26,458 nt of DNA, taken from positions 1 through 26,458 of the IMG/VR virus record IMGVR_UViG_3300031511_000041; one strand, given 5' to 3'. Under the pieces are notes generated by a model. That model was not told the origin of the DNA, made no database searches, and saw only the letters and a list, made by a program, of their open reading frames with translations. The stretch's first letter is position 1, and every line of letters starts with the position of its first letter. Below, in pieces: positions 2,174 to 18,525 of this stretch. The stretch comes from a virus (lineage: Duplodnaviria; Caudoviricetes). The position numbers and the translations under genes were made by a program.

Positions 2174-2572
2174 ATGAAAATAAAGGTAGGTTTTATAACA
2201 AATAGTTCTTCATGCACATTTATTATATTAGATATTTATAAAAATAGAAACCTTAAAGAAATGTTAAAAAAATATGATGAAGAATTTTCTGAGTTTGATC
2301 TAATATATAATTATAATTATTTTAATTCAGATGAAATTGAAGAAATTAAAACATTTAGTAATTATGGAGAAGAGCTTGATTGGATTCAAAAGGTTTCTGG
2401 ACCGGTTTACGGTAGATTTGGAAATAAATATATAGATATAATAAAGAGTGTAAAAGAAGGAAAAAATCTTCACTATATTACTGTAGATGAAGTTATGGAT
2501 CTTGAACAATTTGCTCAAGACACAGATGGATTAGAATTAGTATATTCAGGACATTGGGAGTATGATAAATGA
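2174..2572 (+). CDS. Hypothetical protein with N-terminal MKIKxGFITNSSS motif
   Basis: Start moved from 2147 to ATG 2174, which has GGAG at 2164-2167 and sits 1 nt after the sbcC stop. The N-terminus MKIKVGFITNSSSCTF matches a motif I recognise from uncharacterised phage proteins. Confidence 0.75.
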   Translation: MKIKVGFITNSSSCTFIILDIYKNRNLKEMLKKYDEEFSEFDLIYNYNYFNSDEIEEIKTFSNYGEELDWIQKVSGPVYGRFGNKYIDIIKSVKEGKNLHYITVDEVMDLEQFAQDTDGLELVYSGHWEYDK

Positions 2573-3624
2573 GTAAAATTCATATAGTAAATTGGTTGCT
2601 AACAAGGAAGTGTAATTTAGATTGCGATTATTGTGCTATAGTAAAAAATTATAGAAATAAACCAGAAGAATATCCTGATATGGCTCATTACTATAAAAAC
2701 GAAATGTCAACTAACTATGTTAAAAGTGTTCTTATGAAGTTTAAACAACATAATCCAGAAGCATTTCATATATTTTATGGTGGAGAGCCATTATTACGAA
2801 AAGGACTTTCAGAAATAATAAATTATTGCAATGACTTTAATATTTACTATACAATAATCAGTAATAACACGCCACAAATACAACCATTAATAGAAAAACT
2901 ATTTAGAGAAACAGAATATATTCAAGGGTTTACAAGTTCTGTTGATCCGGTTATAAGCTCAAATTTAAAAGGTGATAGATTCAAAAAAAGTGTTGAAGGC
3001 TTTAATCAACTCATTGAAATAAAAAGGCAGGGTTTAGTTAAAGATGTTGTTGCTGAAATAACTGTTATGAAAAATAATCTTAATAATCTAGTTGATCTTA
3101 TAACAGTTTTAAGTGATAACGGAATAAATAGCGATATTACTTTTATTGATACAGCTAAAAGTTCATATTATGATTTTTCAAATATAACAGATAAAAATCT
3201 TTTAGTTACAAAAGAAGAAGCAAAACCAGTGATAGATAAACTTCTAAATAGTAGTTTAAATATTCACATGAAAGAAAAACTATTGCCGATGATCTATGAA
3301 TCATTACCGTCAGATATGGATTGTGGGATTCAAAAACGATTACATAATGTAGCCATTGATGCTGATGGTTCTGTTAGATTATGTTTGCGAATACGTGGAG
3401 TTTATACGCCAAACCATATATATGCACATAAACTATTTGCAAAAGATGATATAACTAAAGTATCTCCATTTGCTGAAGTAGCAATTGCAAAAGATAAAAA
3501 AGATTACTGTAAGTTATGTAATCATACGTGCTATTTAATGAGTCAAATTATTGATGATAAACAGTCACAATCATTTGATTTAGTTCATAAAAATATTAGA
3601 GGAGGAATTATAGATGGCAGCTGA
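2569..3624 (+). CDS. Radical SAM protein with C-terminal Cys-containing (SPASM/twitch-like) extension
   Basis: CxxxCxxC motif CNLDCDYC, GGEPLL motif, C-terminal C...IDADGSVRLC...CKLCNHTC. ATGA overlap with the upstream gene. Confidence 0.9.
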   Translation: MSKIHIVNWLLTRKCNLDCDYCAIVKNYRNKPEEYPDMAHYYKNEMSTNYVKSVLMKFKQHNPEAFHIFYGGEPLLRKGLSEIINYCNDFNIYYTIISNNTPQIQPLIEKLFRETEYIQGFTSSVDPVISSNLKGDRFKKSVEGFNQLIEIKRQGLVKDVVAEITVMKNNLNNLVDLITVLSDNGINSDITFIDTAKSSYYDFSNITDKNLLVTKEEAKPVIDKLLNSSLNIHMKEKLLPMIYESLPSDMDCGIQKRLHNVAIDADGSVRLCLRIRGVYTPNHIYAHKLFAKDDITKVSPFAEVAIAKDKKDYCKLCNHTCYLMSQIIDDKQSQSFDLVHKNIRGGIIDGS

Positions 3625-3946
3625 TGAAGATATTATTTCGAGCGCAATTGATTTTTGGAATAAGCTCTATGGTGCCAAAGAAGCAAAAATTCGATTTACA
3701 AAAAAGAGTGATGGAACAATAAGGACTATGAGAGCAACTTTAGACTTCGCTCAAATCCCAAAAAACAAAGTTCCAAAAAAAGTTAATATGTCAAAAATAT
3801 TAACTCTCCTTCAAAAGAGTGGAATTATTAATGTTTATGATCTTGATAAAAAAGATTGGAGATCAATTCCATTTCAAAATGTAGATTGGGTTGAGATTGG
3901 CAAAAGGCATTATATTATTAGACCTTATACAGGAAGGAAAACTTAA
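3614..3946 (+). CDS. WYL_2/DUF2693-like Sm/SH3 beta-barrel protein
   Basis: F-T-K-K-x-D-G-T-I-R-x-M-x-A-T-L and VYDLDKKDWRS motifs. SD GGAGG at 3601-3605. Confidence 0.7.
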   Translation: MAADEDIISSAIDFWNKLYGAKEAKIRFTKKSDGTIRTMRATLDFAQIPKNKVPKKVNMSKILTLLQKSGIINVYDLDKKDWRSIPFQNVDWVEIGKRHYIIRPYTGRKT

Positions 3947-4341
3947 TGAGTTCAATTCTTGATAAAATGATAGAACAATTGAAAACAAATAATCTAACTG
4001 AACAAGTTAGAAGTTTATGTGATAAAATTTATGAAGAAGAAAAAGATAAACAAATTTATAGAAAACTTCTTCCAAAAGGAGCAACAAAATTCTTAGAACT
4101 ACAAGTTCCAGGAAGAAATGAACGAGAAGTTGGTTTTTTAGCTCTAGAGCGAGAAGATGAAAATAAATATATAATTGTATATTCTACTATCTCAAAGACA
4201 GTTGCAGAAGAAAGTTTAAATTCAATAGTAACTACAGGAATATCTCCAAAGCGAATAAAAGTGTGGGTAGTTGTTGATACTAACCCAACAAAAATTTTAA
4301 CCAATTATGCACAAAAAGTGAAACTACTAAGAGGTGAATAG
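3946..4341 (+). CDS. Hypothetical protein
   Basis: 131-aa ORF coupled by a TAATG overlap upstream and a TAGTG overlap downstream. No recognisable motif. Confidence 0.75.
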   Translation: MSSILDKMIEQLKTNNLTEQVRSLCDKIYEEEKDKQIYRKLLPKGATKFLELQVPGRNEREVGFLALEREDENKYIIVYSTISKTVAEESLNSIVTTGISPKRIKVWVVVDTNPTKILTNYAQKVKLLRGE

Positions 4342-6881
4342 TGGCAAACAATAATCTTTTTGAAGAAATTGTAATAAATCCAACCTACTCAAGACTTGTT
4401 TTATCTGAAGCAATGAAAAAAGATTTTAAAACAACAGAACCGAAAGCAGAGAAAAAAGTATTTCTTACTAATGATTTCGTAAATCGAATAACAGACTCTC
4501 TAAGTTCTTCAAATCAAGTTCTTCCACCAAACTGTAGATACACAGAAAGAGTTGGAAGATATACTATTGTTCTTATTGAAGAACCGCCTTCATTTAGAAC
4601 TATATCATTGGAACATTGTGATACTTCATATTATAAAGAAAATTTAAGAAAAAAAGGTGTTTTAGAAGCATATGGGTATAAAAACTTTAATAGGTCAGCT
4701 AATGCTAAATTTAATTTGGCGTTTCCATATGTTATTTACTTATTTATAATTCAAGATGGATTTAATTTTGTTGGAGGAAATGTTTTCTTTAGAACAGCTC
4801 AGTTATCAGGTTTATCTGATCTTCTTTTTAAATCTCCATTAACGAATATTAATAGTGACCAAGAAGTTTGTTTTGGCGGGGGAATAAGAGGATCATATCA
4901 ATCTTTATATGCCACCGTTCAAAATACAATTTCTGTATGGTGGAATGCTGAATTTAATGATGATTATACAGCAAACTTTTCAAAATATAGGAAAGTGCCC
5001 ATTATTAATAATTATTTGGAATGGGAATACATGTCCAAAAATGATCCAATGTTTATCTTTAGCGTTGATTGGATTCCTTATGAGAAAAATATTTATAAAT
5101 CTATCCAAGAATTAAAATCGAGATACAGAATAAGTTCTGACCAAGGTCTGACTTATCAAAATATGGTCAGTATATTTTCAAGGCCATCTAGTTCTGGAAT
5201 TTCAGAAAAAGTTTCCCCTAGATCAAAAACAACCCAAACTTTATATTATGATATAGCTCAAACTGTATATTTAACAGATGAGATAATTCTGAATGTTGGA
5301 GATCCAGTTGTTTTAAATGATGGAAAAGTTGGTTATATATATTCGTTTGTGGGTTTTGTAAATGGTGGGGATATCAAATATGTTCAAATAGAATGCGATG
5401 GAAGATTTTATACATTAAAATATAATTTTGCATTTAAAAAATTCATAGCAGATCAAATACAAAAATACAGATATAAACAGGAAATAACATTAGAAAATGG
5501 AGAAGTTATAAAACCTAATGATATTATTGAGATAGACATTAATGGTACAAAAGCATATAAACATGTAGACTATATTAGAATCTGTAGAAGAGGTGGAGAA
5601 AAAGAACAATATGAAATTAAAGCTGATGGTTTGTTTTATTTTGCAGATAAATTAAATGCTACTGTTCTAAATGTTAAGAATCCAGAAATATTTGGAATAA
5701 AATTGTCTAAGGATAAAAAGTATCTATATCTTAGACGAGGTACTAAGAATGGAGCAATTATAGGTATTAGTCTAGTTAAATATAAGAAAATTTCTCTATC
5801 CAGTAATAATCTATATGCAACATTTGAAACATTAGATAAAAGAGTTGGAACATATGAAGAACGTTGTATATTATCAAAGACATATACTGTACCACCAATT
5901 ATTGATGTTGATGAAGTGAGACCTATAGACTCCATTTTTAGAGTTGGAAGAAAAATATATTCTATTACTATAGGTGGAGAACATAAAACAGGTCTTGCTT
6001 GGTCACATAGAGGAAATATATATTATGAAAATTATTATACTTTATCACCTGCTCCATTTGCTTCTATTGAACAACTTATAAAAGATGATGTATTTTCAAT
6101 TGACGGTCCTGATTTTAAAACAGAATTTAAAGTTGGAGATAACGTAATCGTAGCAAACTGGTCAAATCCTATTGATGTTCTTAATGTCAAAACATTAATT
6201 GGATTTAAGATCGATTCATCTCAAAAAACTCTTTCTTTTGTTCTTCAAAGTAAAGATGGAACAGTGAGTGAAGAAGTATATATCGACCACAAATATTCAC
6301 AAATAAAAACTGGCTATATAAGACGAGTGGTTACTAAATTTGAAAATCTGGAAGTTGGTACAAAAATTATTGCAAAGAAAACTGGGATTGCATGCTTTCC
6401 AAAGAAAGATGTAAATATTGTTGTAGCAATTATTGCTGATAGCCCAAATGAACCATTAGTATTATGTTCAAACGGATGCACATTATGGTATAGCACAATT
6501 ATGAAAAACTTTGAACAGATACCACTAAAATCTAAAAAGTGGGAAACAATGAATCATGTCCCTCTTGATGTTAATAAGATTAAATTTCAATCTGGCGATA
6601 TTATAAACGGCAGAAGTGATTACAATCAACATTGTGGTTATATAATTTTTGATCCAGCACCTACAAGATTTTTAAAATGCGCTATGCTGGATTTATATGG
6701 TACTGGTCAAGAATTTCTAACATTTGATAACTATTTTATGGCAGATGCGATGTTCGATTGTATTCCATTACCAAGAATTTCTGCAGCTAAACAAGCTAAA
6801 ATGGAAACTATAAATGGTTTTTATGATTTTCATGGTGGAGTAATAGAAAATCCAGAAAGCTGGTTAACTTTTTTAAAATAA
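4341..6881 (+). CDS. Large multidomain protein with N-terminal prokaryotic E2 family D-like (PRTRC protein B-like) domain and C-terminal SH3/KOW-like repeats
   Basis: LAFPYVIY...LFKSPLTNINSDQEVCFG...WWNAEFNDD resembles the Prok-E2_D pattern P-x-x-N-[IV]-x5-[VI]-C-x-G followed by FWxSxF. Candidate catalytic Cys177. GTG start with GAGGTG SD. Lies next to JAB, E1 and Ubl genes. Confidence 0.72.
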   Translation: MANNNLFEEIVINPTYSRLVLSEAMKKDFKTTEPKAEKKVFLTNDFVNRITDSLSSSNQVLPPNCRYTERVGRYTIVLIEEPPSFRTISLEHCDTSYYKENLRKKGVLEAYGYKNFNRSANAKFNLAFPYVIYLFIIQDGFNFVGGNVFFRTAQLSGLSDLLFKSPLTNINSDQEVCFGGGIRGSYQSLYATVQNTISVWWNAEFNDDYTANFSKYRKVPIINNYLEWEYMSKNDPMFIFSVDWIPYEKNIYKSIQELKSRYRISSDQGLTYQNMVSIFSRPSSSGISEKVSPRSKTTQTLYYDIAQTVYLTDEIILNVGDPVVLNDGKVGYIYSFVGFVNGGDIKYVQIECDGRFYTLKYNFAFKKFIADQIQKYRYKQEITLENGEVIKPNDIIEIDINGTKAYKHVDYIRICRRGGEKEQYEIKADGLFYFADKLNATVLNVKNPEIFGIKLSKDKKYLYLRRGTKNGAIIGISLVKYKKISLSSNNLYATFETLDKRVGTYEERCILSKTYTVPPIIDVDEVRPIDSIFRVGRKIYSITIGGEHKTGLAWSHRGNIYYENYYTLSPAPFASIEQLIKDDVFSIDGPDFKTEFKVGDNVIVANWSNPIDVLNVKTLIGFKIDSSQKTLSFVLQSKDGTVSEEVYIDHKYSQIKTGYIRRVVTKFENLEVGTKIIAKKTGIACFPKKDVNIVVAIIADSPNEPLVLCSNGCTLWYSTIMKNFEQIPLKSKKWETMNHVPLDVNKIKFQSGDIINGRSDYNQHCGYIIFDPAPTRFLKCAMLDLYGTGQEFLTFDNYFMADAMFDCIPLPRISAAKQAKMETINGFYDFHGGVIENPESWLTFLK

Positions 6882-6892
6882 GGAGGATTTAA

Positions 6893-8392
6893 TTGTTTAA
6901 TATATATGTGAATGACAAAAAAGATGTATTGCCGGAAGATGATATATGTTATATTGTAGCTAAAGAGGGAATATATCTTAAAAAGAAAATTGGAATAATG
7001 GAGAGTATTGCTCCAGTTGATAAAATATCAACTCTAGAAAGTATTACATCGTCAGCAAAAATGCATATCAAAAAAATACCATCTACTTCATTTGCTAAAA
7101 TAGTAGACTTTTTTAAAGAAGTTCATAAAGCATATTATAGTGAAGCTATTGTTCTACTATTTTACCAAGAAGACACACAAAAATATAGAGTTGTTCCTCC
7201 GCATCAAAAAGTATCAGCTGGAAGTGTTGATTATGATCGCATAACTCTTGATGGGTGGAATCTTATTGGAACCATTCATAGTCATGGATCAATGTCAGCT
7301 TTTCATTCTGGAATTGATGATACTGATGAAAATACTTTTGATGGATTACATATTACAATAGGAAACGTAAATAGTGCCGCTAATGATTTTAGCATTTCAG
7401 CATCAATTGTTGCAAATGGTTTTCGTGTTATAGTTGAACCAGAAGAATATATTGATGGTATAAAGAAAACTGTTGATATTGATAAGCAAGAACCATTTTA
7501 TTATTCACGTTCATATAAATACGTTCAAGGACAAGGATTAGTTATTGATGACAAGAAAAGTAAAAAATCTTTTCGTGGAATATTTGATAAACGATATGTT
7601 AGCATCGCAGCACCAAGTAAAAGTATATCTAACCCAAATTGGATGAAAGTTGTTGAGAAAGGCGGGTACCAATGGAATCGCGGAAGAACTAATTTTAATA
7701 CCACGAATAGATTTGGTTTTGATAGATATGCTGGCGGTTTTGGTGGAAACGGTTGGGGTGGTCATTATGATCCGCATGCTTGGAGCCAACGTAATCCTAA
7801 TGCTCTTGAACATCAAGTAAAAAATCAAGTAATTATTGATAATACAAATATTGATAATGATGACTCAATACCATGTATGACATGTAAATATCGAAATGAA
7901 AAACTATTAGCTGAAGAAACATGCGATCTTGATGAACCAATCTATCAATGTACAAAATGTGATACTTTACTTAAAGAAGATGACCTAACTGAAGAGATGT
8001 GTTGTCCAGAATGTAAAACTGGAAATCATCTAATTCTAATTGATGATAATGATTTAGATGATAAATATATAAAAGACATCTCTTCTGTTAATCATGTGAG
8101 TGGTTTTTATACATGTCCTAATTGTAAAGTGAGTTATATGCGTGATGAATCTGTTATTGAATGTCCTTATTGTAAATTTAATGCTGATGAATGTGACAAA
8201 GAAAGTGAAACAGAAACACAAATGTCAACTGATTCTGGACAATATCTTGGTGATATGAATGATAATGTACATGAAACTGTTATAGAACAGGCACAAGGTA
8301 CAAAAATTCCTGACCCAAAACAACAAACCCTTCCACTACAATCTAAAGATGGAAGCTTAATGTCAATGTTCAAAAGAGTATTCAAAAAATGA
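6893..8392 (+). CDS. JAB/MPN+ metallopeptidase (PRTRC protein A-like) with Gly-rich linker and C-terminal zinc ribbons
   Basis: Catalytic E in YSEAIV, then PHQKVSAGSVDY, JAMM motif IHSHGSMSAFHSGIDDTDE and GLHITIG. Five CxxC motifs in the tail. TTG start with AGGAGG at 6881-6886. Confidence 0.88.
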   Translation: MFNIYVNDKKDVLPEDDICYIVAKEGIYLKKKIGIMESIAPVDKISTLESITSSAKMHIKKIPSTSFAKIVDFFKEVHKAYYSEAIVLLFYQEDTQKYRVVPPHQKVSAGSVDYDRITLDGWNLIGTIHSHGSMSAFHSGIDDTDENTFDGLHITIGNVNSAANDFSISASIVANGFRVIVEPEEYIDGIKKTVDIDKQEPFYYSRSYKYVQGQGLVIDDKKSKKSFRGIFDKRYVSIAAPSKSISNPNWMKVVEKGGYQWNRGRTNFNTTNRFGFDRYAGGFGGNGWGGHYDPHAWSQRNPNALEHQVKNQVIIDNTNIDNDDSIPCMTCKYRNEKLLAEETCDLDEPIYQCTKCDTLLKEDDLTEEMCCPECKTGNHLILIDDNDLDDKYIKDISSVNHVSGFYTCPNCKVSYMRDESVIECPYCKFNADECDKESETETQMSTDSGQYLGDMNDNVHETVIEQAQGTKIPDPKQQTLPLQSKDGSLMSMFKRVFKK

Positions 8393-9072
8393 ATAAGATG
8401 AATATTGTAATAATTGGGTTGGGAGGCGTTGGCTCAAATTTAGCTGAACGTCTATGTAAATTTTTGAATTATTCAAAAGATATTGAAGCAAATATTCTAT
8501 TAGTAGATGGAGATCATTACGAACTAAAAAATTATGAAAGACAAGAGTTCAACTCCATTGGTAATAAAGCTGAAGTAAAAGCTATAGAGCTAGAGATGAA
8601 ATTCTCAAATATTTCATTTAATACATCCACTTCATATATAAATGAAACGAATGTAGCAGAATCTATTAAAGAGGGTAATGTTATATTCATGTGCGTAGAT
8701 AATCATAAATCCAGAATGATAATAAATAATTATTGTAAAAATTTAAAAGATGTTACTTTAATTTCTGGGGGAAATGAATTAACGGATGGCAATGTACAAC
8801 TTTATGTCAGAAAAGGAGGGAAGAATATTACGCCAGACTTATGTACATATCATCCTGAAATTGCAAATCCTGAAGATAAATTACCTGACGAAATGTCATG
8901 CGAGGAACTAGCACAGTCCGCGCCACAATTGTACTTTACAAATGTAATGGTTGCAACCTATATGTGTTGTATGTTTTATAACTCAGTTATAAAACAGAAA
9001 AATGAGCGCTCTGAAGTTTATTTTGACATGTTATCAATGTCTTCAGATGCTAAAGTTCGAACAGTAAAATAG
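8389..9072 (+). CDS. ThiF/E1-like ubiquitin-like protein activating enzyme
   Basis: GLGGVG nucleotide-binding loop, DGD-x5-N-x2-RQ, NKAEV, CVDN-x3-R, GN, and SCEE...QLYFTN with candidate catalytic Cys171, as in PRTRC-type ThiF. Confidence 0.92.
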   Translation: MNKMNIVIIGLGGVGSNLAERLCKFLNYSKDIEANILLVDGDHYELKNYERQEFNSIGNKAEVKAIELEMKFSNISFNTSTSYINETNVAESIKEGNVIFMCVDNHKSRMIINNYCKNLKDVTLISGGNELTDGNVQLYVRKGGKNITPDLCTYHPEIANPEDKLPDEMSCEELAQSAPQLYFTNVMVATYMCCMFYNSVIKQKNERSEVYFDMLSMSSDAKVRTVK

Positions 9073-9115: not shown

Positions 9116-9592
9116 ATGAGTAGAAAATTTACCAGAGAACAATTGGAAGCCAAAAGAGACAAAGAACTGAAACGTATGTGCGCAAATGAACTGGGTATGC
9201 CAGGTATGAGCAAGAAACGCAAGAATGAGGTTATTGAAGCCATCCTTGCAAAGTTTGGTGGAAGCGGAAGCGGAACAGCAAGTGTTACCAAAGCTGAAAA
9301 ACCAACTCCTTTGAGCGGTATTGAGTATACAGCTCGAGCTCATATGTCCAAACCAAACGCAGACTTTGGTTTCAAAACATCTACAACAGTTCAGGTATCT
9401 TGCGGTGCCAGTTCTGGAGCTTTTCCGGTTGCCGGCCGTACGGTTAAAGAAGTCGGTGAGTTCCTTCGGGAAGTTCTTAATGTGGACAAACTTTCAACAG
9501 GTCTTGTCAACGGTTCAGCTGCTAACGCAGATTATCAGCTAAAACCAGGTGATAAACTTGAATTCCTGAAACCTGCTGGCAGAAAGGGATAG
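9116..9592 (+). CDS. Ubiquitin-like (beta-grasp) protein with N-terminal Rho-N/HeH-like domain; C-terminus ...KPAGRKG
   Basis: N-terminal LEAKRDKELKRMCANELGMPGMSKKRKNEVIEAIL fits the Rho-N/HeH pattern. The C-terminal ~70 aa (TVKEV...LVNG...LKPGDKLEF) fits a ThiS/MoaD/Ub fold and ends in GxKG. SD AAGGA upstream. Confidence 0.85.
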   Translation: MSRKFTREQLEAKRDKELKRMCANELGMPGMSKKRKNEVIEAILAKFGGSGSGTASVTKAEKPTPLSGIEYTARAHMSKPNADFGFKTSTTVQVSCGASSGAFPVAGRTVKEVGEFLREVLNVDKLSTGLVNGSAANADYQLKPGDKLEFLKPAGRKG

Positions 9593-9610: not shown

Positions 9611-9640
9611 ATTGGGGGGAAGAAATTCCCCCCAATATTT
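9611..9640 (+). terminator. Stem-loop after the Ubl gene (terminator/attenuator or mRNA stabiliser)
   Basis: Perfect 11-bp stem ATTGGGGGGAA / TTCCCCCCAAT with a GAAA loop, followed by only a short ATTT tract. Confidence 0.7.
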
Positions 9641-9667: not shown

Positions 9668-10579
9668 GTGTATAGAACTGTGACAGTAATTGGGTTAGGA
9701 ACCCTTGGCGGATTTTTATGTAAACATCTGTCAGAAGTTGAAAATGTCAAAGAGTTGATTGTTGTTGATTATGATATAGTTGAAAGCAGAAATGTATATA
9801 GATCTGTTTATAAACCCACTGATGTTGGGGATTACAAAGTTAATGCTTTAGCGAATCTTTTAGATGATTATGTTGCTGTCACCAAAATAAAAACTCGTTA
9901 CATTGAAGGAGAAACTAAACTACCAAAAAGTGACTTAGTAATAGATTGTAGAGATGTTGTTTGTGATAGACAAAATGAAATTGATGTAAGATTTTATATA
10001 TCTCATAAAACTCTTATTATAGATTGTAGAAAGAAAGTAGAAAATATTTGTAGTTATCAAGGAGGATATATTACTCAGCTTAATAAAAGCGAAATAAGTA
10101 AGGCTGCTTTCTTTGCAACACAAACTATTTTAAGCGGACATCTTAATAAATTAATGAAAAATAATATGATTCAAAAAATTGATTTAAATTTAATTTCATC
10201 TGTTATGGACAAAAATATACAAAGCAGTTTAGAAAATAAAATAGATATTATTTATGAAATGGCAGATAATTCAAAACGACTTCAGTGTATTGAAGAAAAT
10301 ATAAATCCAATTTTAAATTTAAATAAAAAACAAAATGTTGATGTATTTGTTGGAGGAAAATCTAATTATGAAATATTGACAAGGCGTCAATTTCCAGAAG
10401 TAGCTAAGACAAAATACCATTTGGTTCCTCAAAATTCATTACTAACATCTGGGGATGTAATTGGAAAATTAACATCGATTGTAAAACAACAGCCAGGTAT
10501 AACCAATTTTATAATTGCTGTAGTACATGAAAATGGTAAATCATATGTGGAGCTACTAGAAGAAACAGGAGCTGCATAA
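9668..10579 (+). CDS. Second, divergent ThiF/E1-like protein with uncharacterised C-terminal region
   Basis: VIGLGTLGG, VVDYDIVESRNVYRS, DVGDYKVNAL and DLVIDCRD cover the adenylation domain. GTG start with AAGGAG at 9653-9658. Confidence 0.82.
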   Translation: MYRTVTVIGLGTLGGFLCKHLSEVENVKELIVVDYDIVESRNVYRSVYKPTDVGDYKVNALANLLDDYVAVTKIKTRYIEGETKLPKSDLVIDCRDVVCDRQNEIDVRFYISHKTLIIDCRKKVENICSYQGGYITQLNKSEISKAAFFATQTILSGHLNKLMKNNMIQKIDLNLISSVMDKNIQSSLENKIDIIYEMADNSKRLQCIEENINPILNLNKKQNVDVFVGGKSNYEILTRRQFPEVAKTKYHLVPQNSLLTSGDVIGKLTSIVKQQPGITNFIIAVVHENGKSYVELLEETGAA

Positions 10580-11025
10580 TGAATTTTAACAAACCAACAC
10601 TTAAAATAAGTTATGGAAGTCAAACAAATGGTTATGATATTAGATATATATATGTTGACAAAATAATCCCAAATCGGATTATAAAGAATAAAAGATTGTA
10701 TAAAATTACTTATCTAGATGAATTTTATCATATTAATGCTGTTCATTTTTTAGTTAGCAAAAATACAATAAATGGAAAAGAGAACGTGATAAAAATAACA
10801 TTAGATGGCTTTCATCCAAATACACTTAGAAATACAGCAAATGAATATTGCTTACAAGATAAAGATAAAGGTTCACTATTTATAGAAACTTTCTTTGATA
10901 GAATGATTGCGAATATTCATAACTATTATCTTGATAGTTGTATTTTTGAACCGCCCACTGATATGTTACAATATGAAAGAATGAGATCAATGTATGTACA
11001 ACTAAATGGAGATGAATATGAATAA
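10579..11025 (+). CDS. Putative E2/UBC-like protein (HPN-x9-C)
   Basis: FHPNTLRNTANEYCL resembles the UBC active-site motif (H79-P80-N81, C91). The 148-aa size fits a UBC domain. Coupled to the second E1 by TAATG. Confidence 0.55.
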   Translation: MNFNKPTLKISYGSQTNGYDIRYIYVDKIIPNRIIKNKRLYKITYLDEFYHINAVHFLVSKNTINGKENVIKITLDGFHPNTLRNTANEYCLQDKDKGSLFIETFFDRMIANIHNYYLDSCIFEPPTDMLQYERMRSMYVQLNGDEYE

Positions 11026-11236: not shown

Positions 11237-13885
11237 ATGCCAGGATTGCTTAATTATGATGAATATTGTAAAGACCTAGAGGAAGTGACCTCTCTAAAAG
11301 TATTTGATAAAAAGAAATTTCATCCACAAGGATTATTCTCTGAGCAGATCTTCGGACCAGTTAAGAATTATACTTGTCAATGTGGAACATATTATGGAAT
11401 ATCAAAATCTGGAGGAGCATGTAGTACATGTGGAGTTGATATTGTGAATAGTGATGAACGAAGAAAAAGATTCGCAAAGATAGCTCTACCCCTTCCAGTA
11501 GTTAATCCATTATTTTATGATCTACTTTGCGAAGTTGGTGGTAAAACTTTAAAAAGTGCTATAGATCAAATAATGAGAAATGAGAAAAGTTATATGTTTA
11601 TGGATGGAGTCGATCATGTTATTAGGACAGATGGCGAAATGCCTACTGGCGTTAAAGTTTATGAAAAAACTGATGCAATTCTAAAGTTGATTACAGACAT
11701 TGCAACAGAAAATAAAGACTCTGTAGAATGGGGGCATATCTATAAAAACTTGAATAGTTTAATTTTAACACACATAATAGTTTTGCCACCTGAACTACGA
11801 CCATCTTCATCTTCAGGTGGAAAGCATTTAATGGATAAAATTAATAGATTTTATGTCCAGATCTTAACAAAAAAAGATATAATGAAAGATACAATTCTTA
11901 ATATTGTTAAAGATAAAAAAATATATTACACTTATTTTAAACAGTTACAAAAAGACGTAAATGAACTATATCACGAAATACTAAAGAAGATGGCGAAAAA
12001 AGAAGGATTGATAAGGGGAAACATTTTAGGAAAAAGAATTGATTTCTCAGGCAGAGCTGTTATCATACCTGATCCGACATTAAAACTTAATGAATGTGTT
12101 TTGCCTTATGCAATGATTTTAGAAATTTATAAACTTCCAATTGCAAAACGAATTATTGAAACAGGAAAATTTAAACTCTTAAATAAAGCAATTGATTTTG
12201 TTGATCGTTGTATTGAATTTAATTCTCCTGTATTGTTTAACATATGTGAAGAAGTAACTAAAGATGAAGTTTGTATGTTAAACAGACAACCAACTCTACA
12301 TAAACTTGGTATGTTATCATTCAATATAAAAATATCATTAGATAAAGTTATAAAGATTCATCCGCTAGTTTGTGCTCCATTTAATGCTGATTTTGATGGA
12401 GATCAAATGGCTGTTTATGTTCCAGTATCACCAGAAGCAAAAGCAGAAGCGAAATTTAAGATGTCTATTGAAAACAATCTTCATAGTCCAGCAAATGAAA
12501 ATTTAACAACTACACCAAATCAAGATATTGTTTTAGGAATATATTACTTAACTTCAGGAATGTTTGAAGGCGAAGATGGTTTTAAAATATTTAATGAGTG
12601 CTTGCCATCTGATCACGAAGAAATTACAGACGTAGTTGATAAAAGAAAATTAATGGAAATCTTAAATAACATTAAAGATACATATCCAAGTAATGTAACA
12701 GTTGAAGTATTAGATAATATTAAACGAATAGGATTTAAATATGCAACGCTTTATGGTTCTACTCTTTCTCTTGATGACTTCTATATTGAAGACGCTATTG
12801 AATTTAAACAACAGTTATTTCAAGGGAAAATTAAAGATCAATTAGTTGCTCTGTCAGATCCAAAAGTTGATAATTTTTTAAAAGAGCGTTTTAAATACTC
12901 TTATATGATTGAATCTGGAGCACGAGGTAGTTGGGATCAAGCAAAACAGATGTTATTAACTAGAGGATTTATTTCAAATTTTGATGGTGAAATTTTACCA
13001 GAACCGATTAAACATAGTTTAACAGAAGGCTTAAATGAAGAAGAATTTTTCTATTCAACTTACGGTTGTAGAAAAGGTCTTCTTGATGTTGCTTTAAATA
13101 CAGGTACTAGTGGATATCTTTCAAGAAAATTAATTTTCACTTGCGCTAATCTTCAAATTGATGATTGTCTTGAAGATTGTGGGACAACTGACTTTTTGCA
13201 AGTTAATGTTGGTAGTGAAAGAAAAGCAAGAATGTTAATCAATAGATATTATTTAAATGATGGCAAATTAGATTTGATTACAAGAGATAATTATATGTCA
13301 TTAATTGATAAGACTATTGAAATACGAAGTCCCATACTATGCAAATCTCCAACTATATGTCACACATGCTATGGAGAACTTTACAAGAGATTAAATAGTC
13401 GTTTCATTGGAATACTTGCTGCGCAGACATTAGGTGAGCGTGGAACACAATTAGTTTTAAGAACATTCCATACTTCTGGTTCTGCTAAAATTCATGGAGA
13501 ACAAAGTGATTATGGAATGAGGCAACAAGATATTATTGGCGATTTAGCTAGTGTATCAAAAATGCTTCATAAATTTGAAGGAAAAACTTATACTGAAATA
13601 GTAAAAGAGTTATTTGCAGTTTATGATAAAGACATTTATCACGTTCATTTTGAAGCAGTTGTTGCTCAGTTAATGTGGTCTCAATCTACAAAATGGAGAT
13701 TGCTTGATGATAGAGATAAAATCAAACCAACTTTCTATAGTATTCAAAGTGTTCCAAATAAAGAATCTTGGATTTTAGCTATGGCATTTTCAAATCCAAA
13801 GAGAAGCATTTTGCAGGGTATCTTATATAAAGGTAGATATTCTGGTATAATGGATAAAATTTTAAAAGGAGAACGGATTTCGTGA
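11237..13885 (+). CDS. rpoC: DNA-directed RNA polymerase beta-prime-like subunit (phage-encoded, compact)
   Basis: GLFSEQIFGP, zinc finger CQC...CSTC, LGKRIDFSGR, NRQPTLH, catalytic NADFDGD, bridge helix RKGLLDVALNTGTSGYLSRKL, trigger loop GERGTQLVLRTFH. SD GGAGGAG. Confidence 0.97.
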   Translation: MPGLLNYDEYCKDLEEVTSLKVFDKKKFHPQGLFSEQIFGPVKNYTCQCGTYYGISKSGGACSTCGVDIVNSDERRKRFAKIALPLPVVNPLFYDLLCEVGGKTLKSAIDQIMRNEKSYMFMDGVDHVIRTDGEMPTGVKVYEKTDAILKLITDIATENKDSVEWGHIYKNLNSLILTHIIVLPPELRPSSSSGGKHLMDKINRFYVQILTKKDIMKDTILNIVKDKKIYYTYFKQLQKDVNELYHEILKKMAKKEGLIRGNILGKRIDFSGRAVIIPDPTLKLNECVLPYAMILEIYKLPIAKRIIETGKFKLLNKAIDFVDRCIEFNSPVLFNICEEVTKDEVCMLNRQPTLHKLGMLSFNIKISLDKVIKIHPLVCAPFNADFDGDQMAVYVPVSPEAKAEAKFKMSIENNLHSPANENLTTTPNQDIVLGIYYLTSGMFEGEDGFKIFNECLPSDHEEITDVVDKRKLMEILNNIKDTYPSNVTVEVLDNIKRIGFKYATLYGSTLSLDDFYIEDAIEFKQQLFQGKIKDQLVALSDPKVDNFLKERFKYSYMIESGARGSWDQAKQMLLTRGFISNFDGEILPEPIKHSLTEGLNEEEFFYSTYGCRKGLLDVALNTGTSGYLSRKLIFTCANLQIDDCLEDCGTTDFLQVNVGSERKARMLINRYYLNDGKLDLITRDNYMSLIDKTIEIRSPILCKSPTICHTCYGELYKRLNSRFIGILAAQTLGERGTQLVLRTFHTSGSAKIHGEQSDYGMRQQDIIGDLASVSKMLHKFEGKTYTEIVKELFAVYDKDIYHVHFEAVVAQLMWSQSTKWRLLDDRDKIKPTFYSIQSVPNKESWILAMAFSNPKRSILQGILYKGRYSGIMDKILKGERIS

Positions 13886-14097
13886 CAGTAGAAGATATAA
13901 AGAACGATTTATTAAAGAGATTTCTTGAAGATAGGTTAGATAATTTTTCGTTAAGTAAACCAACATATCGTTTGGATAATCAAGAAACTTATATAGAATA
14001 TTTTCCAGAAGATGCTGAAATAATTGATGATATCTCAAGCTTCAGAATTGCTGAAGATGTTACTGGAAGCATTATATGGGAGGCAAAGAGAGAATGA
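13882..14097 (+). CDS. Small acidic hypothetical protein
   Basis: GTGA overlap with the rpoC stop, an AGGAG SD upstream, and an ATGA overlap with the next gene. Confidence 0.6.
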   Translation: MTVEDIKNDLLKRFLEDRLDNFSLSKPTYRLDNQETYIEYFPEDAEIIDDISSFRIAEDVTGSIIWEAKRE

Positions 14098-14276
14098 GAG
14101 ATCCAGCAAGAATTGAACCAATTCTAAAAAACATAAGAGAGATTTGGACTAAAAATCCAGATCTTAGATTAACGCAACTTATAATGAATGCTTTAGCTAT
14201 AAATTATGATCCATATTTTATTGAAGATGATGATTTGCAACAAGCATTGGAAGATTATAAAAAACAATTTAAATAG
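14094..14276 (+). CDS. YihD/DUF1040-like small protein
   Basis: MRDPARIEPIL...IWTKNPDLRLTQL matches the MRDPxRI...W...PDLRLxQL pattern common in phages. Start moved to ATG 14094 (ATGA overlap). Confidence 0.7.
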   Translation: MRDPARIEPILKNIREIWTKNPDLRLTQLIMNALAINYDPYFIEDDDLQQALEDYKKQFK

Positions 14277-14287
14277 GGAGGACGCCT

Positions 14288-17287
14288 TTGAACATAATAA
14301 ATCCAAATTTTAAACTTCAAGATGCGAATAACATCTTTAACTTAAGAAAAGCAGAATACGAACAGATAATACCTATTGCAAGGCAAATTCTTGAACCAGT
14401 TAGAGAATTAGGTTTTGAAATTATTGAACTGGAATTGCGAGATTCAAGATTTTCATCTGGCGAATTATCAAAAACAATAAAACAATCTTTAGTAATAAAG
14501 ATTCAGAAGAATACGTCAGTAATAGATTTAAGCATGTTTATTCCAAAGCTGTTAGACAATAATTATATGGTTATCAACAAACGAAAAAAGATACCGCTAT
14601 TTCAATTGTTTGATATCCCAATAGTTACTAGAGGAAACTCAATTAAATTACGAACCAACGTAGCAACTCTAATGGTTGTTAAACAAAAAGAATCTCCTTA
14701 TATTTACGTTAGTTTTCTAGGAAAAAAATTACCATTATCATTACTAATGATGGCATACTATGGGCCAGATAATCTTACTGATCGTTATGATTTATTAAAT
14801 TATAAAGCTCCTATAAATCCATCACTTTTTGAGTATCTAATAACAGATCTTTCTGAAATGCTTAGCGAGTCAAAAGGATATACTCAAGATGATTTTATTC
14901 ATGAAGTTGGAAGAGTATATTCAAAATTTAATGCAAAATCAAAAGGTCTTGATATAATGTATGCTCTTGATTTAATTGCAAAAGTAGATGTTATGACTGC
15001 AAGATTTTTGCAAACTAATTGTATAATGGAAGAATTACTATTAGCTATTAATGATGAGGTCTATGATGATACATTATTTACAAATAAACGAGTGAGATGT
15101 TTTGAATATTTATTATTTTCAAAACTATCTAAGATTGTTTTTGACTTATGTTTTTCAAACAGAACAACAAAACAACCAAAGTTTAATATTAACTCAACTC
15201 AGTTACTTTCCGAATGTAATGTATCAGACATAGTTCAGTTTGATTTTTCAATTAATCCTCTTGAAGAGCTTACAAAATTATCAAGGATTAGTCTTCTAGG
15301 TCCAGGTGGTTTTAAGAGAGAAAATATTCCAAAACATTTAAGAGATATTTGCCCAACAATGTTTGGACGAGTATGTCCTGTTGATACTCCAGATAGAGAT
15401 AATTGTGGAGTTTTACAAAATTTAATTCCAAATACTATTTTGGATGAAAATATGAAATTTGATAGTAAGTATCTTTCTAAACAACCAATTTCAATTCCTG
15501 TTTCTATGGTTCCATTTTTAGAACATGATGACCAAACAAGACTTCAAATGGCTTCGTCACAAATGCGGCAAGCAATTCTTTTAAAGAACTTTGATGAACC
15601 CATGATTAAATCTGGATGTGAACATTTATATACTGATCAAACTCAGTTTATAAAACGAGCAAAGAAAAATGGTGAAGTAGTTCATATAGATAATAAATAT
15701 ATAATTGTTATATATGACGATAGCCAAGCAGATATCTTTGATATTGGATATCGAAAAATCTATGTTGAGCATATGGACTTTATGAATATATATGTTAAGC
15801 CAGGAGATAAGTTTAAAGCTGGAGATATTCTTGCTGAAAGTAATTTTTGTAAAAATGGAAGTATTAATATAGGCAAAAATTTACTAACTGGCGTTATGGT
15901 TCATTATGGTAATAATTATGAAGATGGTATTGTTATATCTGATCGTTTAGTTGATGAAGATCTAATGACATCAATTCATTTTAAAGATCTATCATTTACA
16001 TTACCCCCAAATAAAGTTCTGTTATCATTAAGTGACAAAGAATATAAACCATTACCAAATGATTTTGAAACTATTACCACTGGACAACCCTATGCAAGAA
16101 TTAAAAGTTTATCTTCTGAAGATCTGTATTCAGTTTTTGGTGAAGAAGTAAAATTAGAAGCTGAGAGAAGTTTTATTATTTCAGAAGTAAAATTATATGC
16201 AAACTCTTGGAATGATGAAGTTCCAGAATATAGTAGCTGGGTTGAATCGCAAGTTAAAAAACAGCAAGATCAGGAAAAATTTCTTGCAAAAATATTACGA
16301 GATAAACTTTCAAAAGACGAAGCAAATAAGTTTATCAAAGAACGAAATCTTGATTTGTTTTCTCATGTGGGAAAATATAAAGAAAAGAAAGAAAAAATAA
16401 ATGGTATTCTTATCAAAATGATAGGTGTTCATTTTAGAAAAATTAAATGTGGAGATAAGATTGCCAATCGCCATGGTAACAAGGGAGTTATAAGCAGGAT
16501 TGTTCCACATGAAAAAATGCCGCAACTTGAAGATGGAAGGCATTTAGATATATGTATAAATCCTTTAGGTAGTATATCAAGGATGAATATAGGTCAGTTA
16601 TTTGAATTACAATTATCAGCATCACTTGGAGATCTAAAAAAGAATTTAAGTAGTATGATAGATGAATCAGCCGAACAAGAACTAATAAGAGAATATCTTA
16701 TTGATTTTATTAAGTTAATTGATAAAACAAATGGACAATGGTATAGTAATCAGTTTGTGGAACAATTACCTGAAAAAATTACAAAAGAATTTATTGATAG
16801 TTTAACATTAATTCAAGCTCCATTTGATTCTTGTAACTTGAAAGATTTACACAATGCTTTAACTTATACTGGAACACAATTTAAGCAAAAAGTTTATGAT
16901 CCACTTTCTAAAGTAAATTTGTTAAATCCGATAGCAGTTGGTTATATTTACTTCTTTAGAATGGTACATATTGCTGAAGAGAAATTAGCAGCACGAGGCA
17001 TTGGAACATATGCAAAAAGAACATTGCAACCACTCGGAGGCCGAAAAAATAAAGGTGGTCAACGATGCGGTGAAATGGAAACTGCTTGCTTAATTGGACA
17101 TGATGCTCCAGTAAATCTTTTAGAGTTCTTAACAACAAAATCTGATTGTATTGATCTAAAAAATAATTACATACGAAGTTATATAGATCCAAATAGTATA
17201 GATGAAACCAAAGAATTAAGCACAAAACCAGAATCAGTAAAATTACTTGATTCATATCTCACAGTAATTGGTGTAGATCAAAAATGA
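14288..17287 (+). CDS. rpoB: DNA-directed RNA polymerase beta-like subunit (phage-encoded)
   Basis: SRISLLGPGG, GRVCPVDTPD, PFLEHDDQTRLQMASSQMRQA, GNNYEDGIVIS, GDKIANRHGNKGVIS, NPLGSISRMNIGQ, GGQRCGEME. TTG start with GGGAGG SD. Confidence 0.97.
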   Translation: MNIINPNFKLQDANNIFNLRKAEYEQIIPIARQILEPVRELGFEIIELELRDSRFSSGELSKTIKQSLVIKIQKNTSVIDLSMFIPKLLDNNYMVINKRKKIPLFQLFDIPIVTRGNSIKLRTNVATLMVVKQKESPYIYVSFLGKKLPLSLLMMAYYGPDNLTDRYDLLNYKAPINPSLFEYLITDLSEMLSESKGYTQDDFIHEVGRVYSKFNAKSKGLDIMYALDLIAKVDVMTARFLQTNCIMEELLLAINDEVYDDTLFTNKRVRCFEYLLFSKLSKIVFDLCFSNRTTKQPKFNINSTQLLSECNVSDIVQFDFSINPLEELTKLSRISLLGPGGFKRENIPKHLRDICPTMFGRVCPVDTPDRDNCGVLQNLIPNTILDENMKFDSKYLSKQPISIPVSMVPFLEHDDQTRLQMASSQMRQAILLKNFDEPMIKSGCEHLYTDQTQFIKRAKKNGEVVHIDNKYIIVIYDDSQADIFDIGYRKIYVEHMDFMNIYVKPGDKFKAGDILAESNFCKNGSINIGKNLLTGVMVHYGNNYEDGIVISDRLVDEDLMTSIHFKDLSFTLPPNKVLLSLSDKEYKPLPNDFETITTGQPYARIKSLSSEDLYSVFGEEVKLEAERSFIISEVKLYANSWNDEVPEYSSWVESQVKKQQDQEKFLAKILRDKLSKDEANKFIKERNLDLFSHVGKYKEKKEKINGILIKMIGVHFRKIKCGDKIANRHGNKGVISRIVPHEKMPQLEDGRHLDICINPLGSISRMNIGQLFELQLSASLGDLKKNLSSMIDESAEQELIREYLIDFIKLIDKTNGQWYSNQFVEQLPEKITKEFIDSLTLIQAPFDSCNLKDLHNALTYTGTQFKQKVYDPLSKVNLLNPIAVGYIYFFRMVHIAEEKLAARGIGTYAKRTLQPLGGRKNKGGQRCGEMETACLIGHDAPVNLLEFLTTKSDCIDLKNNYIRSYIDPNSIDETKELSTKPESVKLLDSYLTVIGVDQK

Positions 17288-17430: not shown

Positions 17431-17687
17431 AAACACGTCATTGCCCAGAATGTGGGGCGGAAATTATATTTGATTATGAAACTCCAACTAAATCATATAG
17501 AATTACAGATGGAGAAATATGCAGAGATGACAATAATTTGTCAGATAATCCAGAGTTAAATCCATATTGTTCTAACGATAAAACACATAAGATCGAACCA
17601 GAAGATATTAAAGAATCCCAAGAATTTTGGAGTTGGTCTAATGGAGTATATATGGATTTTATTGATAGAGGTATATATGACCAATAA
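17424..17687 (+). CDS. Small zinc-ribbon-like protein
   Basis: CPECG near the N-terminus and C-x5-H (CSNDKTH) later. GGAG SD at 17412-17415. Confidence 0.65.
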   Translation: MLETRHCPECGAEIIFDYETPTKSYRITDGEICRDDNNLSDNPELNPYCSNDKTHKIEPEDIKESQEFWSWSNGVYMDFIDRGIYDQ

Positions 17688-18525
17688 AACTTGTTTACCA
17701 GATATTCAATGTTCAGAACCAAACATTAATATTCCAATACAGCAAGTAGGTGTTGAGAATATTGAGGTTCCTTTTAAATTAGAATTTAGAAGTGGCGGAT
17801 TTTGTCAGCTAAATGCTAATGTGTCAATTAGAACCAATTTGGACAAAGATACAAAAGGCATATCAATGTCCAGATTGCTTCTAACATTAAAACCATATTT
17901 AGATTTGCCTTTAAAGCATGTTCTAATTAAACAAATACTTGAAGATTTGCGAAATAATATTGGAAGTACAGCTAGTTACATGAAGTTTGATTTTAGAATG
18001 CCATTAATTAAACAGTCAATTACGTCAGACAATAAATTTCCAATCTATTATAAATGTAGGTTTGAAGGACAATTAGAAGATAATAATTTCAGATTTTTTC
18101 AAGGAGTTATTATTCAATACGCATCATATTGTCCATGTTCAGCTGAACTTTGTAAACATTTAGAAGATAATAAGTCAAAAGGATATCCGCATAATCAAAG
18201 ATCGTTTGCAGATATCCTTATAGAAGTTCAGCCACCATTGTATGTTTGGCTTGAAGATATTATTGAAACAGTTGAAACAAAGATTAAAACCTTGCCATAT
18301 CCTGTAATAAAAAGAGTTGATGAACAAGAAATTGCTAGAGTAGCAGCAGAAAATCCTATGTTTGTTGAAGATTCAATTCGTTTAATTTCAGTTGCTTTAA
18401 ATGAAATGAATTTATATGATTGGATTGTAAAATGCAAACATGAAGAATCTATTCACACTTCTGAAGCAATAGCTATTAATTGGAAAGGTATAGCGGGAGG
18501 TTTTAGTGGGAGGAGATTTGTGTGA
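17677..18525 (+). CDS. folE2: GTP cyclohydrolase I, type IB (FolE2/MptA family)
   Basis: LPDIQ, IQQVGV, KGISMSR, CPCS, PHNQRS, KRVDE, NPMFVEDSIR, EESIH. Start moved to ATG 17677 (GAGGT SD). Confidence 0.93.
   Translation: MTNKTCLPDIQCSEPNINIPIQQVGVENIEVPFKLEFRSGGFCQLNANVSIRTNLDKDTKGISMSRLLLTLKPYLDLPLKHVLIKQILEDLRNNIGSTASYMKFDFRMPLIKQSITSDNKFPIYYKCRFEGQLEDNNFRFFQGVIIQYASYCPCSAELCKHLEDNKSKGYPHNQRSFADILIEVQPPLYVWLEDIIETVETKIKTLPYPVIKRVDEQEIARVAAENPMFVEDSIRLISVALNEMNLYDWIVKCKHEESIHTSEAIAINWKGIAGGFSGRRFV

Follow-up and report, generated by a model that had tools for sequence, protein, structure and literature searches.

Related systems

Bacterial ubiquitin-like systems mostly lack E3 ligases, and how their targets are chosen is an open question. 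In Bil and Bub, which are sets of E1, E2, ubiquitin-like protein (Ubl) and JAB peptidase with no E3, the E2 has been proposed to choose the target (relevant passages of PMC10557695 and PMC11601596). UBE2O, a eukaryotic E3-independent E2/E3 hybrid, is built of five SH3-like domains and a UBC domain (PMC12818219; PDB 7yw1); it and BIRC6 are the only E3-independent E2s considered in the pertinent part of that paper. Prok-E2_D (PF14460), or PRTRC protein B (TIGR03737), belongs to operon type 6d of Iyer et al. 2006 (PMC1779556), whose passages on this type place a His downstream of the Cys as absolutely conserved. The mReC phages are described as carrying beta/beta' RNA polymerase (RNAP) genes together with a terminase (Weinheimer and Aylward 2020, pertinent parts of PMC7481178).

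The DNA analysed here, a stretch of 26,458 nucleotides referred to below as the window, belongs to a large phage genome. Like mReC phages, it combines genes for beta and beta' with markers of Caudovirales, and it encodes a giant E2 of 846 aa (4341..6881 on the + strand, as are all window features given below in this form). The protein resembles UBE2O in having a UBC domain and tandem SH3-like domains in one chain, the phage barrels being those of a predicted model. In UBE2O, however, the barrels are N-terminal and the UBC domain C-terminal, an order that is reversed in the giant E2 (E2 at residues 58-256, barrels at 315-833); the SH3-like domains number five in UBE2O and a likely six here; and a conserved acidic pocket faces the catalytic Cys of UBE2O, whereas the conserved charges of the phage barrels, counted along the sequence, lean basic. 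No sequence match between the two was detected, and the giant E2 domain is of the prokaryotic family D type. The likeness is best read as convergent, with UBE2O the closest working analogue; with UBE2O and BIRC6 the sole E3-independent E2s considered in the source just cited, a phage barrel E2 would be their convergent prokaryotic counterpart.

With PRTRC B the giant E2 shares an E2-D-like domain, a conserved Cys and an operon that includes a JAB (PRTRC_A-like), a ThiF E1 and a Ubl. The preliminary description of the window had held that PRTRC-type E2s are usually small single-domain proteins, and the TIGR03737 model does indeed span 228 positions, against 846 aa here; the giant E2 also lacks a conserved His after its Cys. 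ParB is the partner to be expected of a PRTRC cassette, going by the family name; none was found among the 25 window proteins, and the giant E2 is, in contrast, a phage core gene. Bil and Bub are host defences with small E2s, whereas the giant E2 system is phage-encoded. Bub works through oxyesters at an E1 Tyr and an E2 Ser and Bil has a tandem IAD-AAD-CYS E1; here both E1 and E2 have an invariant Cys, and the E1 is of the single-domain Cys type. Among prokaryotic E2s of the D type the giant E2 is a variant, likely to be E2/E3-hybrid-like but distinct from UBE2O, canonical PRTRC-B and Spt5 (see below).

The giant E2 family

The E2 (UBC-fold) domain, Prok-E2_D-like, was found at residues ~58-256 (4512..5108), close to the 55-260 originally proposed. 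Its predicted active site, Asn169 ... Cys177 (4845..4871), is invariant: both residues are present in 212/212 aligned homologs (the alignment consists of the fetched homologs of 780-1000 aa, other lengths being excluded). No His-dominated column appears across 178-214 of this alignment; the conserved columns C-terminal to Cys177 are W201, F205, N206 and D208. Profile matches to the named families are faint. The window protein scores 18.1 bits with PF14460 against a cut-off of 25, which is passed by 10/45 homologs in a set partly picked for that label; TIGR03737 gives weak matches to 16 of 44, the best at 19.8 bits, and none of the 44 comes near its cut-off of 131.

The family is large. A search of 50%-cluster representatives returned 779 matches; 113 homologs are 26-50% identical and mostly full-length, and full-length homologs in the loci described below measure 802-888 aa. 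A search for short proteins related to the E2 domain drew 95 candidates, 0 of them at E<=0.001. Pattern or BLAST-type searches, of limited reach, confirmed no relatives in GTDB genomes (54 pattern matches, 0 confirmed), in INPHARED phages or, with the E2 part as query, in plasmids. One homolog (P0009), on a 255-kb contig, is labelled as coming from a Thorarchaeota MAG; the contig is probably viral and binned with that MAG. The first four BFVD rows matching the giant E2 model are other viral proteins, with lengths of 241 aa (TM 0.60 by target) and 438-621 aa; they may represent additional members of the phage E2-D type whose tails differ. An assembly artefact is unlikely, because in four other runs the gene, as far as they cover it, is free of indels and joints. 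There was no RNA data set among 24 runs, which has no bearing on expression.

The predicted barrel tail

A short motif had been seen to recur five times after the E2 region, and all five copies are in place and conserved. A looser form at the five sites is kept in 148-207 of the 212 homologs, and in 69 homologs that are <30% identical the strict motif occurs on average 2.4 times, against 0.37 by chance. (A shuffle test gave 0/20,000, a figure that is inflated because the pattern was itself derived from the tested sites.) The AlphaFold model, which is confident (pLDDT 92), makes the tail almost all-beta with repeated beta-barrels, as the preliminary description had anticipated, and points to six likely SH3-like barrels, one of them missed by the motif; four segments match SH3-like folds directly, a fifth does so by profile and the last via one weak match. 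Predicted barrel 1, with a helix (5283..5468, residues 315-376 by DSSP), has its motif at 317, with G320 in 207/212 and D321 in 201/212 homologs. Barrel 2 (5472..5669, residues 378-443, motif at 390) and barrel 3, the one missed by the motif (5670..5921, residues 444-527), are followed by a beta-rich connector by DSSP (5928..6110, residues 530-590) that is variable, with low conservation and no separate fold match. Then come barrel 4 (6111..6332, residues 591-664, motif at 596), barrel 5, the most conserved part (6333..6563, residues 665-741, motif at 670, with basic K675, K688 and K689), and a probable barrel 6 (6570..6839, residues 744-833, motif at 749), which includes a conserved P811-R812.

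That these are repeats in sequence as well as fold holds for one pair. Barrels 1 and 4 show clear profile kinship (77% by hhalign; 13% when compared as halves), but most pairs show no similarity, with 4/21 above 15%. Since clear kinship is limited to barrels 1 and 4, the repeats are read as old and diverged; a simple recent duplication was rejected, profile similarity being absent in most pairs.

The tail had also been described as a tandem of KOW/SH3-like barrels. The SH3-like part of that proposal is borne out by the model; no KOW profile match was found in Pfam scans of 46 proteins or in the fold searches. Tandem KOW-like barrels are present as a fold, which is common to Tudor, BAH and SH3 domains. 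The Foldseek list is headed by Spt5 at TM-scores of 0.17 or less, and BAH and Tudor matches equal or exceed those to KOW; UBE2O, MIB1 and HERC2 are among the weak matches. No NGN domain was found in the Pfam scans of 46 proteins or in fold searches, the N-terminal region matching E2s instead. Foldseek with the 660-846 model gave 0 matches at E<=0.001, residues 580-846 found no usable match in the ESM Atlas (best 0.83), and Spt5, NusG and UBE2O were absent from PDB sequence searches with three profiles (A1, A4, A5; E<=10 for UBE2O). The PDB sequence searches also gave a match to Protein M (E 0.007-0.03), which was disregarded since it did not recur in the structure searches.

Conservation in the tail peaks at residues 660-760, where it equals that of the catalytic core, and at P811-R812. 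The conserved charged positions comprise 11 basic and 7 acidic ones, counted along the sequence. Barrels 1-3 are the fastest-changing part measured (mean identity 27.6%). The pair C709/C713 was considered as a HECT-like second site and rejected: it is not invariant and is missing in two loci of a diverged sub-lineage (L122/L123).

The first module

In relatives of mReC phages the gene order E2-JAB-E1-Ubl-ThiF2-E2b-RNAP is fixed. The main comparison covers 59 IMG/VR loci and the window, 60 in all, some of the contigs being near-duplicates; JAB, E1, Ubl, beta' and beta were each called in 59/60. Upstream of the E2 lies a gene for a 131-aa protein of no assigned family (3946..4341; in 57/60 loci), whose stop overlaps the E2 start. 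The ESM Atlas provides a weak nuclease-like lead only, and prediction of its complex with the full giant E2 scored 0.01 against a mark of 0.32, which says nothing for or against an interaction. Just upstream of the giant E2, some loci have an insert that encodes a Rho_N-like domain on its own, followed by a long acidic tail (L037:9528-9965; also L040, L049, L050 and L056); it resembles the Ubl N-terminus.

Downstream, the JAB peptidase (6893..8392; PF14464 E 2.8e-6, with PRTRC_A below cut-off) has a Zn-ribbon/acidic extension and conserved H-x-H, S and D columns. The extension varies, the protein totalling 297-627 aa with 0-9 CxxC motifs, and long forms have a C-terminal IPxP motif plus a basic amphipathic tail. 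The IPxP motif was considered as a ligand of the barrels and set aside, being present in 34/55 rows and in 0/16 of the shortest JABs. The E1 (8389..9072; PF00899 E 2e-21) is a single ThiF domain, 224-246 aa across loci, with an invariant Cys in an SCEE motif. The Ubl (9116..9592) has a Rho_N-like N-terminus (E 6.9e-6) and a ThiS-like domain (E 0.017), and ends in KG, which is terminal or near-terminal in 58/59 Ubls and followed by a short extension in 22/58. Catalytic positions of E1, JAB and Ubl are kept across loci.

Directly 3' of the Ubl stop codon, a GC-rich hairpin (9611..9636), usually without a T-run, closes the first module. It is at or below -13 kcal/mol in 52/52 distinct Ubl loci; of 11 other genes, ten are followed by such a hairpin in 0-2 cases and beta' in 12/55. 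It might terminate transcription by the phage RNAP or stabilise the mRNA. A sigma-70 scan was at chance level (76 vs 73).

The second module and the RNAP genes

Beyond the hairpin lie a second ThiF-like protein, whose C-terminus is conserved and has GAA as its last residues, and a small E2-like protein with an HPN...C motif (9668..11025), a separate module whose two members covary in rate at 0.57; rate covariation and the hairpin both split the operon in two. Between Ubl and second ThiF, three gene families without Pfam match occur in 22, 8 and 8 of the 60 loci (for example, L002:14155-14721). A 74-aa gene separates the small E2-like gene from the RNAP beta' and beta genes (11237..17287, by Pfam), whose downstream position is fixed.

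The proximity of the RNAP genes, and Spt5 as first match in Foldseek, would fit a dock of the Spt5/NusG-KOW or CarD/Mfd/UvrD-RID type, by which the barrels would tether the E2 to the phage or host RNAP elongation complex and couple tagging to transcription. Spt5/DSIF, the KOW strings of NusG and the RNAP-interaction domains of CarD, Mfd and UvrD have tandem or single SH3-like barrels and are top Foldseek rows for the giant E2, but a high rank for Spt5 is what one would expect of any string of such barrels, and the low TM-scores and the BAH and Tudor matches noted above also count against a dock. Unlike Spt5 and NusG, moreover, the giant E2 has an E2 as its N-terminal domain, no KOW profile match and no covariation with RNAP: across 36 loci and 69 branches, barrels against beta/beta' parts gave -0.06 to -0.28, whereas the controls were recovered at 0.36-0.57 (the second module; beta/beta' at 0.37-0.42; E1/Ubl at 0.36). 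From phage to phage the barrels share 28-40% identity and RNAP 66-70%, and the conserved hairpin parts the first module from the genes adjoining RNAP. Because the covariation test is noisy, with residuals that lean negative, it lowers this reading modestly only; on the whole we consider such a dock unlikely.

The window also encodes SbcC, WYL_2 and a terminase large subunit (TerL, weakly PF03237), as well as FolE2 (17641-18525) and a radical SAM enzyme (2569-3624) adjoining the operon; PTPS lies upstream in relatives (L005:1113-1550). Together with the ThiF/ThiS-like pair, the Rho_N-like domain of the Ubl and the basic barrels, these enzymes could be taken to mean that the operon moves sulfur or a tag onto nucleic acid, in DNA or tRNA modification, with barrels that bind nucleic acid. 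FolE2, PTPS and radical SAM, however, presumably fit a separate 7-deazaguanine DNA modification route. There are 0 desulfurase, rhodanese or thiolase families among the 25 window proteins, a thioester-type Cys is kept in both E1 and E2, and sulfur-carrier pathways are described as having no E2s (relevant passages of PMC10557695), all of which makes this reading improbable.

Distribution

Loci with 9 kb upstream of RNAP were drawn from the best 80 of 300 matches to a beta' query (53-100% identity), and in this RNAP-anchored set E2 and barrels share one ORF in 50/51. The 51st has a diverged 1228-aa form with barrel motifs visible by eye; this is the form of the sub-lineage of L122 (2257-5943) and L123, in which the barrels have internal insertions and the Ubl linker is acidic. 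On metagenome contigs, 57/60 barrel ORFs whose start lies within the contig are fused to an E2, and barrel ORFs are followed by JAB in 67/68 cases and by beta' in 34/34. Two cases appear unfused: L160, which has one in-frame stop, and L216, which looks chimeric; L189 lies at a contig edge. The three sets overlap, and distant mReC members are outside their reach. Two contigs named in the mReC annotation table (supplement 4 of PMC7481178) carry the operon, and their beta' proteins share 67.6% and 68.4% identity with that of the window; the carriers of the giant E2 are probable relatives of mReC phages.

Counter-defence genes are patchy in distribution, whereas presence and order of this operon are fixed in the loci seen, among replication and transcription genes. 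That the system serves counter-defence or assembly, tagging a virion or host defence protein or acting as a decoy for host Bil/CBASS conjugation, is on this account highly improbable, even if barrels 1-3 change as fast as they do and those bacterial E1-E2-Ubl systems that have been characterised function in conflict with phages (according to the passages of PMC11601596 concerned).

Proposed mode of action

The reading that we prefer, and regard as evenly balanced, is that the giant E2 is a phage E2/E3 hybrid that binds its own target via the barrels; because its layout resembles that of UBE2O, it likely selects targets without a separate E3 ligase. The preliminary suggestion that the tandem barrels recognise substrates in place of an E3 is partly supported. 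The JAB would trim the Ubl to its terminal Gly, where there is an extension; the ThiF E1 would adenylate the Ubl and hold it on the invariant Cys; the Ubl would be handed on to Cys177 in a thioester relay; and the barrels would keep the target beside Cys177 for direct transfer. Since the conserved charges of the barrels lean basic and the tag has a Rho_N-like domain, the target would most likely be an acidic or nucleic-acid-bound protein.

Alternatively, the barrels may act inside the cascade, binding Ubl, E1 or JAB and activating or organising E2~Ubl, the catalytic half of what an E3 does, with the target read by the E2 domain. Conservation of residues 660-760 at the level of the catalytic core is what a conserved partner would call for, the C-terminal barrels have their best covariation outside the protein with E1 (0.27), and SH3-C of UBE2O is reported to bind ubiquitin (pertinent part of PMC12818219). 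Covariation with Ubl is nevertheless -0.04 and -0.08, and PRTRC_B-type E2s, whose E1, JAB and Ubl partners are of like kind, manage at about 228 aa, so that the relay can do without the additional 580 residues; we hold a purely internal role to be rather unlikely. Equally doubtful is a more elaborate form of the preferred hybrid, a UBE2O-like E2/E3 enzyme built independently by this lineage from a prokaryotic E2 and Spt5-like barrels, which would ride transcription complexes and attach a nucleic-acid-binding Ubl tag as a core phage step.

Significance

The words 'ubiquitin', 'ThiF' and 'JAB' are absent from the main text of PMC7481178 as available, and its supplement 4 has automatic domain labels only, with no KOW label; the matching passages of PMC7824862 contain no phage E1-E2-Ubl system. 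A literature search that covered few subscription journals turned up no publication describing such an operon in a phage, and an E2 fused to SH3-like barrels was found only for UBE2O. Within that coverage, the barrel architecture of the giant E2 and its comparison with UBE2O were not found in print and are new here. In this family an E2 carries a candidate specificity module that is separable, spans 580 residues and exists in hundreds of natural variants, and all parts of the system are small enough for expression in E. coli. For the phages themselves, the operon would imply that protein tagging is a core function in a deep-branching, RNAP-encoding lineage.
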